Part shown: one piece after another, positions 1,370 to 33,987 of the stretch | Layout: each line of letters starts with the position of its first letter | Position numbering within the stretch: the first letter of the stretch is position 1 | Source of the DNA: a virus | IMG/VR virus record: IMGVR_UViG_3300045988_139943 | Location: 1-33,987 of that record | Length of the DNA stretch: 33,987 nt | Reading direction: 5' to 3' (one strand) | Program-made: the position numbers and the translations under genes | The notes under the pieces: model-generated | Database searches by the model: none | What the model was told of the DNA's origin: nothing | What the model saw: the letters and a program-made list of their open reading frames with translations, nothing else

Positions 1370-1495
1370 CTACTGTACGATATAGTCGTACTCTTCACGA
1401 GTAATTAAACCTGACTCGTAACGGTCGATTAGCTGGTCTTTTGTAATTCTCCCAGCATTGTAAAGCCTTTTTAAGCTTTCTATTAAAATTCTCAT
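1370..1495 (-). CDS. XkdX-family small phage protein (41 aa).
   Basis: Below the size cutoff of the supplied ORF track. MRILIESLKRLYNAGRITKDQLIDRYESGLITREEYDYIVQ. The ATG overlaps the TAA of the upstream gene (TAATG). The xITxEQYxxI motif and the position after tail fibre/XkdW match XkdX. Confidence 0.55.
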   Translation of the reverse strand: MRILIESLKRLYNAGRITKDQLIDRYESGLITREEYDYIVQ

Positions 1496-1803
1496 TAGAT
1501 AACACCCTCCTCTATAAGCTGTAAAGTGTACTCGTCGATAATTTCAGACTCACGACGTAGAGTCAGAGAGTTTAGAGCCTCTGAGACTGTGTTTCTATAT
1601 TGAGAAGTCTTATAGAGTTCATACTCTCCCTGAGTTAAAAAAGCCTCGTCATAAGTGTATTTAACGATATGCTCTCCTAACTCCGTCTCAACTTCTACAG
1701 CCTCGATTTTTTCCCTAATAAAAACGCCGTCTGGTGATGATGTTGTATCAATCTCAGACGGACGTATTAAGCTCTCAGCTTTTCTGTAGCATAATTCAGC
1801 CAT
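1495..1803 (-). CDS. XkdW-like or hypothetical acidic protein (102 aa) directly downstream of the DGR RT. Not Avd-like.
   Basis: Size and position immediately before the XkdX-like ORF. Very acidic, whereas Avd proteins are basic four-helix bundles. Confidence 0.35.
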   Translation of the reverse strand: MAELCYRKAESLIRPSEIDTTSSPDGVFIREKIEAVEVETELGEHIVKYTYDEAFLTQGEYELYKTSQYRNTVSEALNSLTLRRESEIIDEYTLQLIEEGVI

Positions 1804-1808
1804 TTTAA

Positions 1809-2912
1809 TTACTCCTTTCTCTTTTTAAAATGGTTACTTATCAATTTTTTACAAAGTTTGATTTTTACATTAGGCTCTATATATTTCTTAAAAGCCTTAT
1901 AAGTATTTGTAGCCTTAAACCAACCCATATAGCTTAAAAGCTGGCATGAGTCATACCAAGTAATCTGTTTTTTACTCCCCATTCTTCTAGCTTTACGGAT
2001 TGCTCTTAGAAAAATTTTAGCTCTTATAGTTGTTTTATCTCTGTAGAACTTAAACCCCATAAAGTCGATAGGACGTCCTCTACGATTGCCGTTTTTGTCT
2101 ATGTAATCAAACCTAAAAATCTGATAATTAGATTTAACCTCTAAATCAATAGAGGCTAAATAGTCTTTAATTCTTTCAAAATTCTTATGTAATTCTTTTT
2201 TATTTCGTCCAAAAATTACAATATCGTCCATATACCTAACGTAGCATTTCGCTTTTAATTCCTCTTTTACAAAGTGGTCAAAGTCTTGTAAAAACCAATT
2301 TGCAAACCATTGAGACGTATAAAAGCCGATAGGTAAACCCTCTCTAAATTCTTCTCCTCTGAGTTCTGCAGAGTTAGAGTCCAGTACAAAAAATATCAGC
2401 TTTAACATCTTCTCATCATGTATAGTTTTTCTGAGTTTGTCTTTTAAAATATCAATATTGATACTTTGATAAAAATGTTTAATATCCAATTTTAAAACAT
2501 ATTTAATCTCAGCTTTATTTTTTTTGATAAATTTCTCTATATACTTTTTACCATAATGGACACCTCGTCCCGGAATAGACCCACAGGAATATTCATACAT
2601 ACCTTTATAAAATATCGGCTGTAAGGTTTTAACTACGACGTGCTGAGTCCATTGTTCAGGATAAAAATAAGGCTGTATTACAACTCTCTTTTTAAGTAAA
2701 AAGCCGTCGTTAATCTCTACTGCATTATGTTTTATGGGGGTATATTCCCCTTTAATAAGCCAATCCCTATATTTTTTAACGTATTTATCTAAGTTTTTAA
2801 AAATTTTGTCGACTTCTGGTCTGTTTCTCTTACCTTTGCTTGCACCACTCAGCGACGATAAAATAATATCGTCGCTTATCGCAATTTCAAAGAGGTGATT
2901 ATATGATTTCAT
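1809..2912 (-). CDS. DGR-type reverse transcriptase.
   Basis: 367 aa. RT motif 5 YMDD (VRYMDDIVIFG). Motif 4 LPIGFYTSQWFANWFL resembles the DGR-specific IGNLTSQ signature. It sits 120 bp from TR1 on the same strand. Confidence 0.85.
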   Translation of the reverse strand: MKSYNHLFEIAISDDIILSSLSGASKGKRNRPEVDKIFKNLDKYVKKYRDWLIKGEYTPIKHNAVEINDGFLLKKRVVIQPYFYPEQWTQHVVVKTLQPIFYKGMYEYSCGSIPGRGVHYGKKYIEKFIKKNKAEIKYVLKLDIKHFYQSINIDILKDKLRKTIHDEKMLKLIFFVLDSNSAELRGEEFREGLPIGFYTSQWFANWFLQDFDHFVKEELKAKCYVRYMDDIVIFGRNKKELHKNFERIKDYLASIDLEVKSNYQIFRFDYIDKNGNRRGRPIDFMGFKFYRDKTTIRAKIFLRAIRKARRMGSKKQITWYDSCQLLSYMGWFKATNTYKAFKKYIEPNVKIKLCKKLISNHFKKRKE

Positions 2913-3032
2913 TCTCTTACTAAAACCTCACGAGCTTTCTACAAGTTACTGGCCCATGCCTCTTTGTCGGTTAATTTTTACCGAGTGGTATGGATAATAA
3001 ACCACATTGTAAGTATTGTATCTTTAGTAATT
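2913..3032 (-). other. DGR spacer between TR1 and the RT start codon. No ORF. Expected part of the TR-containing non-coding RNA that primes cDNA synthesis.
   Basis: No open frame on the - strand. Analogous position to the TR-brt spacer of characterised DGRs. Confidence 0.45.
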
Positions 3033-3143
3033 GAGCGACACGCCATAGTTCCAATTCGAAATAGAAGAGGCGTTGTTGACATTGAACGCAAAAGCACCAA
3101 CCAACAAGCCGTCATTCGGATTGCTACCAAAGCGAGCGAAACC
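3033..3143 (-). repeat. DGR template repeat TR1 (111 bp).
   Basis: 104/111 identical to 3488-3598. All 7 mismatches are T on the + strand of TR, which is A on the coding strand. On the - strand it reads open as GFARFGSNPNDGLLVGAFAFNVNNASSISNWNYGVSL with seven AAY codons. Confidence 0.85.
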
Positions 3144-3174
3144 CTGAATTATTACCCATAATTTTTTAGTATGC

Positions 3175-3284
3175 GAGCGACACGCCATAGTTCCAAACTG
3201 TATGAGAGCTGGGGTTATTCACAGTAAGAGCAAAACAACCAGCTAAAAAGCTCTCCAGCGAACTCGAACCAAAGCGAGCGAAAC
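3175..3284 (-). repeat. Second, divergent TR-like cassette (TR2) in tandem with TR1.
   Basis: It shares the 22-nt 3' end gagcgacacgccatagttccaa and the 16-nt 5' end ccaaagcgagcgaaac with TR1. The central ~70 nt are divergent. It is open in the equivalent frame: SFARFGSSSLESFLAGCFALTVNNPSSHTVWNYGVSL. It is intergenic. Confidence 0.65.
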
Positions 3285-3417
3285 TCGTAGTATATTATCC
3301 AAATTTTAAAAGTGCAAAACACCTAGTACGCTATGGAAAATATACCATAAATAAAAAATCTACAAGCGATTTTAACCGTAAAATCATTTACTTAGTGTAG
3401 AAAAAAAATATTTTCAT

Positions 3418-3433
3418 GAGCCTAAAGGCTCAA
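3418..3433 (-). terminator. Second hairpin downstream of the tail-fibre gene, tgagcc-taaa-ggctca, followed on the - strand by a T-rich tract. Possible terminator.
   Basis: Perfect 6-bp stem with a 4-nt loop, then ...tgaaaatattttttttc on the - strand. Confidence 0.35.
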
Positions 3434-3443
3434 TAGATTAAAT

Positions 3444-3459
3444 GGGGGATAGCTCCCCC
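3444..3459 (-). other. GC-rich hairpin immediately 3' of the tail-fibre stop and VR. Candidate DGR target-recognition hairpin/cruciform.
   Basis: On the - strand: TAG-ggggtttGGGGGAgctaTCCCCC. A 6-bp G/C stem with a 4-nt loop, about 30 nt past the end of VR/TR homology, in a ~35% GC genome. Confidence 0.6.
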
Positions 3460-3466
3460 AAACCCC

Positions 3467-5119
3467 CTAAAGAGGCTTAGAGTAAGAGAGCGACACGCCA
3501 TAGAGCCAATACGAAATAGAAGAGGCGTAGTAGACATTGAACGCAAAAGCACCAACCAACAAGCCGTCATACGGATAGCTACCAAAGCGAGCGAAACCGA
3601 CAACAGAGGAATTAGACCAGAAACCGTCGCAATAATAAGTAGAGGAAGAACCCCCAGCGTCGGACGTTGGTACAAGTCCCAATTTTGGTACTAACTTCAT
3701 ATTTTTTATGTAGCATTGAGAGACCGTCCCAGCATTTGTTACGCCAGAGTCTATATATCCGTCTCCTGTAACATTATAATCATCTACAGTAGAGCCGTCA
3801 GCCTGTCCCTCACACATTTTATATAAAAGTTTTCCGTTTTTCTGGATAAGTCCGTTAGTAAATTTCCAAATATTCCCCCACCAGTTCTCAATATGGAATA
3901 CTTTAACAGCTCCGTTGTTATTATCACCGTAAAACATACCCTTATTGTCTAAAGTCCCTGTATTAAGTTGGTTATTTGAGTTATTAGAGCCTCCAGAGTA
4001 GCGGCCTGTACCATAAACAGACTGAGTGTCTAAGGATTTACCAACCAGAATTAGTAAATAGTTGATTAAGCGTCTTAAATTGTATGGGTCTACATTCCAG
4101 CCGTTACCGTTAGCCTTAGCGTAAGCCATTTGAGTATCACCAGCGACATTTTTACAAATTGCTTGACCTGATAAAGAACGGATTTTATTACTGATATTTG
4201 AGCCGTCGTAAATAGCTCGATATACATTTTTATTGTATGTACCGTCCTTACGGATATGAGTAAAACAGTCGTAGGAGTCGTCTATTTGCTTGTTTGCGAT
4301 ATAGATATGTTTACGTCCGTTTATTTCCTCCTCTTTAATCCAGATTTGTCCTATTTCTACCATAGCGTTACCACCATAAGAACTATTAGCAACATCTGAG
4401 GCTGGGCCGTTAAGTTTTTTGCTGTAATTGTTAGGGTCTAAATAATAGTCTACTGTGCCGTCATACTTTAACATACAAGGCTTAAACAAATTCATAAAAA
4501 AGGCGTCTCCCCAAGAGCCATAGTTGAAAACTCCACTATTATAATCCATGCCAGCTGGCGTAAATTTTTCGTTTTTACTCCCTGCAGGGTAAGATACAGC
4601 ACCACTAGGCAAAGCGTTATTAGGGTCGATTACAAACTCGTAAATCTCAGCACTCCCAAACCTGTTAGAGTCGTTTAAGTTTACGACATTGTTTTTAGAG
4701 ACTGGAAATACGCTATAAAAATACTCGTTATCCTCATCAGGTAGAGTATCAACCAACGCTACTGTGTCGTAAGCGTTTCTGGTAGTATTTTCGACGATTA
4801 TATCTCCGTCTTTTTCATTCTCTGGATAACTTCCAGCTTTTCTTACTACTATTGTTTTTTTCCAAGAGCATAGTGTTAAATCTTCTATAACCGTATCGCT
4901 AGGGTCTTTCCAGTTCAAAGATACTGTAGTCCCCTCTTTTTCTATTCTAAGATTTTTACAATTTGACGGAGGTATGCCAGCTCGTAAAGCAATATCGCCT
5001 ACAGCTGAGTCTATTGTATCAAAGTTATTATTTAAAGCCTTTGTAATATTAAATTTTTCTTTTTTGTCAGCCTCTGCGTCATATTTAAAAAGTTTTAGAT
5101 TTTCTGTAGTATTTGACAT
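3467..5119 (-). CDS. Tail fibre / receptor-binding protein, DGR target (550 aa) with a C-terminal C-type-lectin-fold-like variable region.
   Basis: Last large structural gene after the baseplate genes. The C-terminus carries the VR. N/G/S/Y-rich beta-type composition. Confidence 0.75.
   Translation of the reverse strand: MSNTTENLKLFKYDAEADKKEKFNITKALNNNFDTIDSAVGDIALRAGIPPSNCKNLRIEKEGTTVSLNWKDPSDTVIEDLTLCSWKKTIVVRKAGSYPENEKDGDIIVENTTRNAYDTVALVDTLPDEDNEYFYSVFPVSKNNVVNLNDSNRFGSAEIYEFVIDPNNALPSGAVSYPAGSKNEKFTPAGMDYNSGVFNYGSWGDAFFMNLFKPCMLKYDGTVDYYLDPNNYSKKLNGPASDVANSSYGGNAMVEIGQIWIKEEEINGRKHIYIANKQIDDSYDCFTHIRKDGTYNKNVYRAIYDGSNISNKIRSLSGQAICKNVAGDTQMAYAKANGNGWNVDPYNLRRLINYLLILVGKSLDTQSVYGTGRYSGGSNNSNNQLNTGTLDNKGMFYGDNNNGAVKVFHIENWWGNIWKFTNGLIQKNGKLLYKMCEGQADGSTVDDYNVTGDGYIDSGVTNAGTVSQCYIKNMKLVPKLGLVPTSDAGGSSSTYYCDGFWSNSSVVGFARFGSYPYDGLLVGAFAFNVYYASSISYWLYGVSLSYSKPL
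3488..3598 (-). repeat. DGR variable repeat VR: the last 37 codons before the final 7 codons of the tail-fibre gene.
   Basis: Cognate of TR1. Encodes ...GFARFGSYPYDGLLVGAFAFNVYYASSISYWLYGVSL. The 3' end ggcgtgtcgctc is identical to TR (IMH-like GC element) and the sequence diverges after it. Confidence 0.85.
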
Positions 5120-5136
5120 ATTTTTTACTCCTTTTC

Positions 5137-5670
5137 TTAAAATTCAAACATATCTATAGTCAGCTCTTCCATTTCTTCAATCGTCTTAACTTCGTGTATT
5201 GTTTCGATAATGAGGTAACTAAACAAAGTCAAAACAGGGATATGAGCTGGCTTTACAATTCCGATAGCCTCTAAAAGACTGTTAAGATTTGCTGGAGTGC
5301 CTATCGTTTTAAATTTGAGCTGGATTTTTCCGTTAATAAAATCAGCCTCAGCCTCTCCGTCATTCCAAGAGCGACATATAGCCTGAATTAAACTAAGCGT
5401 GTTATGATTGTTACTCAACCAACGAGCCTGTATTTTTGCTCGTCTATTCTCGATAGAGTCTCCCTCCTCTGGTGAAATTTTTAAAAGATTTTCAAAATAG
5501 TTACAGCCGTCCTCATTGAGCGAGTCAAAGAAGAAATTACAGTAAAGTTCATCTATTTTAGTCTTTAAAAAGGTTAATTTATTTGATACTGGAGTTAAAA
5601 TCACATTTGTAAAAATATCCGTCCAGTATCGCTTATTTAAAAGTTTTGTTATTTTTTCTAAATAGCTCAT
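5137..5670 (-). CDS. XkdU/YmfQ-like (DUF2313-type) tail/baseplate protein.
   Basis: 177 aa. Position between the baseplate J-like gene and the tail fibre. Confidence 0.45.
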   Translation of the reverse strand: MSYLEKITKLLNKRYWTDIFTNVILTPVSNKLTFLKTKIDELYCNFFFDSLNEDGCNYFENLLKISPEEGDSIENRRAKIQARWLSNNHNTLSLIQAICRSWNDGEAEADFINGKIQLKFKTIGTPANLNSLLEAIGIVKPAHIPVLTLFSYLIIETIHEVKTIEEMEELTIDMFEF

Positions 5671-32516: not shown

Positions 32517-33883
32517 TGTCTGATATTGCTGTTATATATGCCAGAGTCTCTAGTAAAGAACAGGAGACAGGGGGTTACTCTCTCCCAGCACAACTCGACT
32601 TTTTAAAAGAGTATGCAAAATCTAAAGGTCTGGAAGTTGTTAAGGTATTTACTGAAAGTATGACAGCTAAAGAGGCTGGACGTATTGAATTTAATAACAT
32701 GCTCAAATTTGCTAAAAAACAGCGTTACGGCTGTCATGTTATTGTTGAAAAAAACGACAGACTTTTAAGAAACGAGGACGACGAGGCTTTAATCATCAAT
32801 CTAACAGTAAGACAGGGTCTCATAGATTTACACTTAGTAAAAGACCATTTAATTTTAAATCGTTATTCTACACCTCATGAAATTTTTATGTTTCACATGA
32901 TGTGTGGTATGTCCTCTATGTACCCTCGTAACCTCTCCGGGGAGATTAAAAAAGGCTTAGATAAAAAAGCCGACTTAGGGGACTACCCAGCAAAAGCACC
33001 TATCGGATATAAAAATGTCCGTTCTTCTAAAAAGAGAAGTACGATAGAGATAGACCCTACTAATGCTGGATATGTAAGTAAAATTTTTGAGTTATACGCT
33101 ACTGGTATGTATTCCTATAAAACTCTGGCTGAGCGTATATCTTTGGACGGATTTTATCCAAAAAACAAGCCATGCTCTCCTAAATTAGTTGAAAAAATTA
33201 TCATAAATCCGTTTTATATGGGAGAGTTTGAATTTAACGGCAAACGCTACCACGAGGCAAACCATACACCGATAATTACAAAAGAGTTATTTTATACTTG
33301 TAAAAAAATCAGGGAGAGACACGACAACCCTAGAAAAATAACGCATGACTTTTTGTATTCAGGTTTAATTACTTGCTCTCATTGTGGCTGTCAGCTAACA
33401 GCTGAAATTAAAAAAGGTAAGTACATCTATTATCATTGTACAGGCAATAAGGGAGGGACTTGTAAAAGAAACAAGTATCTAAAAGAGGAATATATAGACG
33501 AGCATATCAGGACTCTTTTAGAGAAAATCCAACCGTCAAAAGAGGACGCTAAAGCTATTGTCGAAAAATTTAAAGAAATTGTAAACGTTAATTTTGACTA
33601 TGATAAAAAATCAATGGAAGAAATAGGCAAAAAAATAAGCCTGTTAAAAAACAGGCTTAACAAACTTTATATTGACCGATTAGACGGTATGATTACAGAT
33701 GAATTTTATAGAGAAAAAAAGAACGAGTTTCAGGGCGAACTAGATGAGCTTGAATTAAAGCATGACAATTTTTTAGCTGAGACTGATACTTTAGTAGATA
33801 TGGCTACTCAAATAATCGAACTCTGCAAAAACGCTTATAATCACTATTTACGCTCCGATAATGAAAATAAACGCCTACTCCTA
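32516..33883 (+). CDS. Large serine recombinase (integrase), N-terminal 455 codons in frame 0. The frame breaks near 33839-33841 and the C-terminal domain continues in the -1 frame, ending at 1-228.
   Basis: MSDIAVIYARVSSKEQETGGYSLPAQLDFLKEYAKSKGLEVV is the resolvase catalytic domain with the Ser in RVSS. The recombinase domain, CSHCGC...CTGNKGGTC zinc ribbon and coiled coil follow. Frame 0 reaches TAA at 33881. The -1 frame from 33841 reads HYLRSDNENKRLLLKILCSN... Confidence 0.75.
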
Positions 33884-33987
33884 AAAATTCTGTGTTCGAA
33901 CTTTTTATATGACGGCTCAAACCTAGTTATAAAGCTAAAAAGCACCGTTGAGCCAATGCTCTTAGGTGCTAATTTTAATAATGGTGG
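33868..33987. repeat. Second copy of the terminal direct repeat (= 1-120).
   Basis: See feature 1-120. Carries one extra C at 33901. Confidence 0.85.

Follow-up and report, generated by a model that had tools for sequence, protein, structure and literature searches.

We analyzed a diversity-generating retroelement (DGR) in the virus record IMGVR_UViG_3300045988_139943, whose full 33,987 nucleotides are referred to here as the window (W). The element lies among genes that are all encoded on the minus strand, and reads, in that direction, as a tail-fiber gene with a variable repeat (VR) at its 3' end, two tandem template repeats (TR2, then TR1), a single structured spacer RNA, and a gene for a reverse transcriptase (RT; Table 1). 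A preliminary description made from the sequence alone had presented the locus as a complete DGR with one template and one VR. The TR1-VR pair of that description is real; the neighboring repeat TR2, which was absent from it, is very probably a second working template.

Table 1. Features of the DGR locus, in window coordinates
Feature	Position	Strand	Remarks
Reverse transcriptase gene, 367 aa, DGR type	1809-2912	-	Pfam RVT_1, 8ub7, phrog_1423
Spacer RNA 3' tail TTTTAGTAAGAG	2914-2925	-	Just before RT start codon; candidate primer strand
Structured spacer RNA, single copy	2916-2990	-	Between TR1 and RT; Rfam RT-18 (RF03021)
Spacer strand TGTGGTTTATTATCC	2992-3006	-	Pairs with the arm directly 5' of each TR
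Conserved motif CTTACAATG	3005-3013	-	Just 5' of the spacer arm; non-covarying
TR1 3'-flank docking strand TTACTAAA	3023-3030	-	Pairs with spacer tail 2917-2925
TR1, RT-proximal template repeat	3026-3143	-	Cognate of the window VR
TR1 5' arm GGGTAATAATTCAGG	3143-3157	-	Complementary to 2992-3006
TR2 3'-flank docking strand TACTAAAA	3164-3171	-	Pairs with spacer tail 2917-2925
TR2, distal template repeat	3168-3285	-	Between VR and TR1; encodes scaffold SSSLESFLAGCFALTVNNPSSHTVWNY
TR2 5' arm GGATAATATACTACG	3286-3300	-	Pairs with 2992-3006, as does the TR1 arm
Two hairpins just 3' of VR	3443-3475	-	CCTCTTTAGGGG, 3464-3475; TGGGGGA-GCTA-TCCCCCA, 3443-3460
VR, variable repeat at 3' end of tail-fiber gene	3481-3598	-	aa about 508-546 of 550
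Target gene, tail fiber/tail protein, 550 aa	3467-5119	-	phrog_5302; AlphaFold2 (AF2) model and Foldseek

The VR of the window derives from TR1. Aligned without gaps, 3033-3143 and 3488-3598 differ at exactly 7 of 111 positions (3049, 3050, 3056, 3074, 3077, 3116, and 3122), all of which are T on the plus strand of TR1, that is, A on the coding strand; with 18 adenines among the 111 positions, the chance of seven out of seven is 9.4e-7. The repeat extends to 118 nt and takes in two further differences (3031, 3032), so that 9/9 fall at template adenines (P = 3.3e-8), and the changes hit the first or second base of AAY codons (Y, pyrimidine) without exception. VR and TR1 have the GC-rich 3' end GGCGTGTCGCTC in common and then diverge. 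The preliminary description had reported the same seven positions, their placement in AAY codons, and the shared GC-rich end, and it had asked for mismatches to be tabulated by template base; each of these points was recovered, and its translations of the two repeats agree with the open reading frame (ORF). Sequence features of the kind associated with DGR directionality are present: the common GC-rich 3' end, divergent flanks of the type known as initiation of mutagenic homing (IMH/IMH*), and a hairpin 3' of VR. The first of the two hairpins, CCTCTTTAGGGG, overlaps the stop codon of the target gene and is conserved 3' of VR in relatives, and neither hairpin is found after TR1 or TR2; they are candidate markers of the target site, a terminator, or both.

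TR2 aligns with TR1 without gaps over the same length, with identical 17-nt 5' ends and 22-nt GC-rich 3' ends flanking an interior that is about 70% identical. It is open in the frame of VR and encodes SSSLESFLAGCFALTVNNPSSHTVWNY, the TR1 counterpart being SNPNDGLLVGAFAFNVNNASSISNWNY, so that the two encoded scaffolds differ at 14 of 27 residues. TR1 contains 18 adenines and seven AAY codons; TR2 contains 16 adenines and three. No further copy of either repeat end, and no second VR, was found in the whole 33.9-kb genome, and TR2 is therefore without a VR of its own.

The RT carries the YMDD box (aa 227-230) and a motif of the IGxxxSQ type, IGFYTSQ (aa 195-201), both as previously described, and matches Pfam RVT_1 (E 3e-20) and phrog_1423 (E 9e-97). 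Its best match among solved structures is 8ub7 (a 328-aa RT; E 6e-20), which we take to be the Bordetella DGR enzyme bRT, the database label being only "Reverse transcriptase"; the alignment sets IGFYTSQ against IGSLTSQ of 8ub7. Matches to the group II intron RT GsI-IIC (1e-13) and a retron-type RT (6e-8) rank behind it, and the RT scores far under every cut-off of the NCBIfam group II intron, retron, and Drt models, which places it, by structure and profile matches and by motif, in the DGR class that the preliminary description had proposed. No ORF of the window matches an Avd family in Pfam, NCBIfam, or PHROGs, although a divergent accessory protein may be present. The lack of a detectable avd is consistent with an accessory-gene-less element of Architecture A, and it is in this sense, as Architecture A and not as a DGR with avd, that the element is complete.

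The target gene, which comes directly after baseplate J and Mu gp48-like genes, encodes a tail protein (phrog_5302, E 3e-79) with an N-terminal helix, a fibronectin type III (FN3)-like domain, and, at its C-terminus, a domain of the C-type-lectin type seen in DGR variable proteins. An AF2 model of the protein (predicted local distance difference test, pLDDT, 91; predicted template modeling score, pTM, 0.80) gives as its top Foldseek match the DGR variable protein TaqVP (5vf4, E 7e-9), with Mtd entries weak at about 1e-2 and sequence identity to TaqVP and Mtd of 11-14%; FN3 domains match its N-terminal part. The model thus predicts for the fiber C-terminus the fold that had been expected of it.

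The spacer between TR1 and the RT gene matches the full length of the Rfam RT-18 model (44.2 bits, gathering score 41.3; E 1e-5 to 1e-6), the match ending about 4 nt before the RT start codon. RT-n RNA motifs have been described beside RT genes, and RT-10 holds the same position in phage BPP-1 (PMC5737381). Matches to CRISPR-DR66, RT-17, and C0299 lay under their gathering scores and were taken as chance or as overlap with RT-18.

Two strands of this single spacer RNA can pair with sequences that flank each template. The spacer strand at 2992-3006 is complementary to the arm directly 5' of TR1 (13/15 positions) and to that of TR2 (14/15), and in 23 lineages this helix of 10-15 bp is 97% paired, with 66 double-sided changes, a result reached by 0/500 shuffles. 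The 3' flanks of both TRs are complementary to the pairing part of the spacer tail (TTTTAGTAA, 2917-2925); for this duplex, 98% of cells are paired when lineages are compared, with 28 double changes (0/500 shuffles). Among the related loci, which comprise sibling genomes and more distant lineages and are given L numbers below (P numbers denote target proteins unless stated), both docking strands are kept in every TR copy of the W, L003, L004, L005, L008, L011, and L017 arrays as judged by eye, with a scripted check covering the window and L003; the 5' arms of the distal TRs of L003 likewise pair with the spacer strand. The sequence upstream of VR shows no pairing with the spacer arm.

Synthesis of complementary DNA (cDNA) in BPP-1 depends on two duplexes: the TR 3' end pairs with the spacer to supply template and primer, and the sequence upstream of TR pairs with the spacer in a second duplex, which is followed by a short stem-loop and adenosines (the "cPRT Stop"; bioRxiv 10.1101/2023.10.23.563531). 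The second set of features is found here: the covarying upstream duplex is followed by the short hairpin ACCACTCGGT (2980-2989) and a run of adenines (AAAAA). A nested template:primer strand 2 nt 5' of the stop strand, as in BPP-1, was not found in the window; the TR 3' flank covaries instead with the 3' terminus of the spacer, some 65 nt beyond the stop strand in the 3' direction, which gives a crossed topology.

Three other features of the spacer region deserve mention. The motif CTTACAATG occurs as CTTA(C/T)AATG or TTCTTAATG in nearly all related loci, and its pairing with the TR 3' end or with the tail was rejected as a helix for want of covariation. The VR-specific 3' flank TCTCTTAC (3479-3486) is perfectly complementary to GTAAGAGA of the spacer tail (2914-2921), in a register 3 nt further 3' than the TR flanks use, an offset that recurs in the distant L041 and L029; this match might help an RNA-linked cDNA to find VR rather than TR, or might reflect only the common ancestry of VR and TR flanks. 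Finally, L007 has an extra insertion of about 200 nt between the tail of its RT-18-like RNA and the RT start codon, so the closeness of the tail to the start codon is not obligatory.

Sibling genomes indicate which template fed the VR. The target protein falls in a 90%-identity cluster of 54 sequences, and among the listed members variation is concentrated in residues 514-542. Eight of these members are full-length with a TR1-type VR, and two (P0128, P0131) have a TR2-type VR followed by the normal VR tail SYSKPL; P0127 and P0132 run into the TR2 flank, and P0130 and P0133 are frameshifted. Each nucleotide sequence was compared with its own cognate TR. The TR1-type VR of L064 shows ten differences, nine of them at adenines (the other is C>T), and that of L068 eight, all at adenines; the TR2-type VRs of L060 and L061 show four (three at adenines and one G>T) and five (all at adenines). 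Together with the seven of the window, 32/34 VR differences lie at adenines of the cognate TR (binomial P about 4e-23). L060 and L061 have intact VR flanks and carry TR2 and TR1 in the order seen in the window, and L061, a 431-kb scaffold, is a prophage. TR1-type and TR2-type VRs each occur on both of two spacer variants that differ by a 1-nt indel, and template switching has therefore been recurrent.

The VR of L066 (about 5515-5600) is a mosaic, in which a 49-nt 5' deletion is followed by an A-mutated TR2-type segment and then by an A-mutated TR1-type 3' segment; the junction is a CTCT microhomology, and the VR is frameshifted. Such a structure would be expected if TR1 cDNA, anchored at the 3' end, had replaced a TR2-type VR only in part, and it looks like an aberrant cDNA integration that inactivated the fiber C-terminus. 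Neither this VR nor those of L060 and L061 matches any TR copy exactly, and they are thus not assembly paths through a TR.

The templates themselves vary less. TR1 is identical in 6/7 sibling loci, the exception being an A>T change in L061, while TR2 carries A>G in L060, two A>G changes and one A>T in L068, and C>A in L061 (copies compared: L068 2093-2201; L060 5837-5945; L061 5837-5945 and 6134-6242). These changes suggest, from their positions, occasional retrohoming or back-conversion into the TRs, which would erode mutable positions. The expectation that VR would be hypervariable at template adenines while TR stays invariant was therefore borne out for VR and, for the templates, held only in part.

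Some target genes run from VR into a TR flank and end four codons short (for example ...GVSLAY*; L062 5524-5641, L063 2004-2121), and P0127, P0132, P0210, P0215, P0219, P0234, P0240, P0266, and P0268 are proteins of this kind. They reflect either a 313-bp deletion from VR to TR2 or an assembler jump; some consist of unmutated TR sequence, likely an artefact, and others carry A changes.

We conclude that the locus is a real DGR, because TR1 and VR differ at adenines only, the RT resembles 8ub7 and has the IGxxxSQ motif, the spacer holds an RT-18 RNA, the target resembles TaqVP and Mtd, and the differences in sibling VRs are concentrated at template adenines. The mismatches, the RT, the target model, and the sibling VRs likewise support the initial reading of adenine-specific mutagenic retrohoming into a C-type-lectin-type domain.

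Tandem templates are found beyond the close siblings. Scanning IMG/VR with the RT gave 59 loci, most of them with the order VR-TR-RT and A-only differences; a look-up by the RT protein P0139 merged similar places and so sampled little VR diversity, but revealed the L067 lineage. Tandem TRs are present in L003, L004, L005 (three copies), L008, L011, L017, and L029. In protein clusters, the L004, L005, L008, and L067 lineages, with two to three TRs, have two to three VR scaffold types that match their different TRs, and three of four lineages with a single assembled TR (L002, L016, L020) have one scaffold type each in 12-15 members; the exception, L010, has two scaffold types, probably from an array collapsed in assembly. 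In nucleotide comparisons, VR differs from the distal TR only at adenines in L071 and L072, which makes that TR its cognate; in L070 and L067 the cognate is the proximal copy. L069 and L070 have the same VR but one and two TRs, respectively, from which it follows that tandem TRs collapse in assemblies or recombine; either process probably explains the "non-cognate" VRs of L001, L006, and L011. Mosaic VRs proposed from protein sequence (P0182, P0164) were rejected, as their nucleotides show A-only copies of a TR of the same genome, leaving L066 as the only genuine mosaic. The VR of L011 (5303-5426) is unlike both of its own TRs, resembles the TR1 type of the window, and has a TAG codon in frame (GGC TAG TTG); pseudogenization, recombination, and recoding are all possible explanations.

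With high confidence we interpret the locus as an active Avd-less DGR of a temperate contractile-tailed phage, in which tandem TR2 and TR1 cassettes both serve the one VR at the tail-fiber tip. The region from TR2 through TR1 and the spacer to RT is probably transcribed as one RNA, in which each cassette would consist of a 5' arm, a template, and a 3' flank, the arm pairing with the spacer strand and the flank with the spacer tail, both pairings being backed by covariation. By analogy with the BPP-1 ribonucleoprotein, the 5'-arm pairing would be the stop duplex and the 3'-flank pairing the template:primer duplex. With both docking strands present in each cassette, either cassette could be engaged by the one spacer/RT-18 RNA and the RT, and docking on that RNA would select the template. 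The RT would then copy the chosen template with random incorporation opposite adenines, as the mismatch spectrum shows, and the cDNA would replace VR by way of the end sequences common to VR, TR1, and TR2, the outcome of which is seen in the VRs. The receptor-binding domain would thereby switch between two scaffolds, each with its own randomizable codons. The pairing pattern suggests that template choice occurs by alternative RNA docking, and on balance we lean towards the broader proposal that tandem arrays of two to three self-contained cassettes are a natural, previously undescribed mode of DGR, in which one RT and spacer RNA choose among templates by alternative long-range pairing and combine scaffold switching with adenine hypermutation, without Avd and with a pseudoknotted RNA. 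The two-template tandem array itself is, in our reading, a new architectural variant of a known element, for which population data from independent metagenomes and RNA covariation speak.

Several observations weigh against this interpretation or narrow it. The window VR itself derives from TR1, and the case for TR2 comes from sibling genomes; distal-TR use was examined at the nucleotide level in four cases only, and the collapse of TRs in assembly makes array sizes and some of the "non-cognate" VRs (L001, L006, L011) unreliable. Two of the 34 VR differences lie off adenines (the G>T of L060 and the C>T of L064), and the TRs are not strictly invariant among sibling genomes, their changes falling mostly at adenines. 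Covariation was counted on loci picked because they paired well (23 of 44) or on a curated set (13 pair types), a selection that inflates the percentage paired but not the compensatory changes. The two duplexes would cross as a pseudoknot if formed together, whereas the BPP-1 order is nested, and given this crossed topology the assignment of the 3'-flank:tail duplex as template:primer duplex is uncertain.

The first alternative attributes the swapping of VR types to recombination or gene conversion at the DNA level, involving either VR and TR2 or co-infecting phages, with only one TR reverse-transcribed per genome. Fusions of VR with TR flank (L062/L063, P0127, P0132, and similar proteins elsewhere) show that VR-TR joints exist in DNA or in assemblies, and the TR2 polymorphisms at adenines could be back-conversion from VR. 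Pure conversion, however, predicts a VR equal to TR2, whereas the adenine differences between TR2-type VRs and the TR2 of the same genome require mutagenic copying of TR2; moreover, later homing from TR1 would overwrite a TR2-type VR with TR1 sequence, and genomes of the two VR types do not differ in TR1 or its flanks. We regard this alternative as improbable.

Very improbable, in our judgment, is a canonical one-template DGR that copies TR1 into VR, with TR2 as a decaying, functionless duplicate. Such a history would fit a window VR that matches TR1 only, the smaller number of AAY codons in TR2 (three versus seven), and the higher polymorphism of TR2 between genomes, but not the TR2-type VRs of sibling genomes with their adenine-specific differences from TR2, the preserved state of TR2 (reading frame open, length exact, ends identical, two docking strands kept), or the distal TRs that are the cognate templates in other lineages. 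That TR2-type VRs and multi-TR arrays are assembly artefacts of near-identical metagenome repeats is scarcely credible: tandem-TR collapse is demonstrable (L069 versus L070), several proteins end in unmutated TR and its flank as assembler jumps would give (P0215, P0266), and there is an N-gap inside the L061 array, but TR2-type VRs have VR flanks on both sides and an interior that differs from every TR at adenines, they recur in independent samples and assemblers, and the window holds both TRs in one contig.

The two ends of the window form an exact 119-bp direct repeat (1-119 = 33869-33987), which identifies it as a phage genome assembled in circular form, about 33.87 kb long, and the same element is found within contigs of 200-430 kb beside cellular genes, and thus as a prophage. 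The names of related proteins (Candidatus Gastranaerophilales or "Cyanobacteria bacterium SIG32") point to the host, which is probably a gut Gastranaerophilales bacterium. A distant blastn search of a phage GenBank collection with window positions 1500-5400 gave no match, and an exact-pattern scan for close relatives returned none in IMG/VR, none in GTDB genomes (two patterns), and one match in JGI metagenomes (L068). Scanning 2800-3700 for sigma-70 promoters gave 2 sites against 1.8 expected, and so no sign of separate TR promoters.

The remainder of the genome (8000-33987) holds the gene set typical of a contractile-tailed temperate phage, with genes for TerL, portal, S78 protease, capsid, sheath, tube, and a tape-measure-like protein, an S24 repressor, RusA, and a replisome organizer. 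An HNH endonuclease and two DNA methyltransferases, one C5 and one N6/N4, are encoded as well. Directly after the RT gene lies an acidic 102-aa ORF (1495-1803, minus strand; phrog_20201, function unknown), which is kept in sibling prophages and absent after the RT of L067, and is probably not a DGR accessory gene.

DGRs are usually described with one invariant template that fixes the scaffold of the variable protein; here the scaffold itself appears switchable, at 14 of its 27 residues, which would widen receptor-binding space beyond adenine mutagenesis by giving one tail-fiber tip two "libraries." The tandem cassettes are also a natural experiment on template selection, in that each duplicates exactly the RNA strands that pair with the spacer; these duplicated strands point to minimal cis-elements for an Avd-less DGR RT and may be useful for multiplexed DGR mutagenesis. 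Loci of this kind will be mis-scored as "non-cognate" or inactive by DGR callers and assemblers built around a single TR.

The element shares with the BPP-1 DGR (mtd-avd-TR-brt) the diversification of a tail-fiber tip, the order of target with VR, TR, spacer RNA, and RT, and adenine-specific mutagenesis; the RTs are homologous and have IGxxxSQ, VR and TR have a GC-rich 3' end in common and then diverge, a hairpin lies 3' of VR, and the TR-upstream:spacer duplex is followed by a short stem-loop and adenosines. Unlike BPP-1, it has no detectable avd, has two templates for one VR, and has a spacer RNA of type RT-18 rather than RT-10; its TR 3' flank pairs with the extreme 3' end of the spacer, and the duplexes consequently cross rather than nest. 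In its target-TR-RT order on one strand, with no avd, HRDC, MSL, or CH1 gene, it resembles Architecture A, the TR-RT core without accessory genes that makes up 29% of 372 curated DGRs (Wu et al., 2018, PMC5758913); that survey, however, describes one TR per element, and multiplicity there concerns targets, not templates. More than one TR near one RT is known from Stenotrophomonas sp. SKA14 (PMC6642488) and from the zeta crAss-like phages Lera/ct1yV3 (PMC12386605), in which each TR is paired with its own VR or VRs in different ORFs (TR1-VR1, TR2-VR2), whereas the TRs of the window are tandem, have both ends in common, and would compete for a single VR. We found no published description of several TRs feeding one VR, large surveys included, but only TRn-VRn pairs for different targets; absence from the searchable literature is no proof of novelty. 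Like TaqVP of Thermus aquaticus and Mtd, the target has in its model a C-type-lectin-type fold with VR at the C-terminus, and unlike them it also contains an FN3-like domain, together with a large middle domain of the kind usual in the tail protein of this phage group (phrog_5302). A parallel in outline is silent-cassette antigenic variation, as in Neisseria (pilS to pilE) and Borrelia (vls), which proceeds by DNA gene conversion without programmed mutagenesis. There, as here, one expressed site is rewritten from several unexpressed, differing donors with conserved ends, but the transfer in the window, unlike pilS/pilE and vls, bears the adenine-specific signature of reverse transcription.

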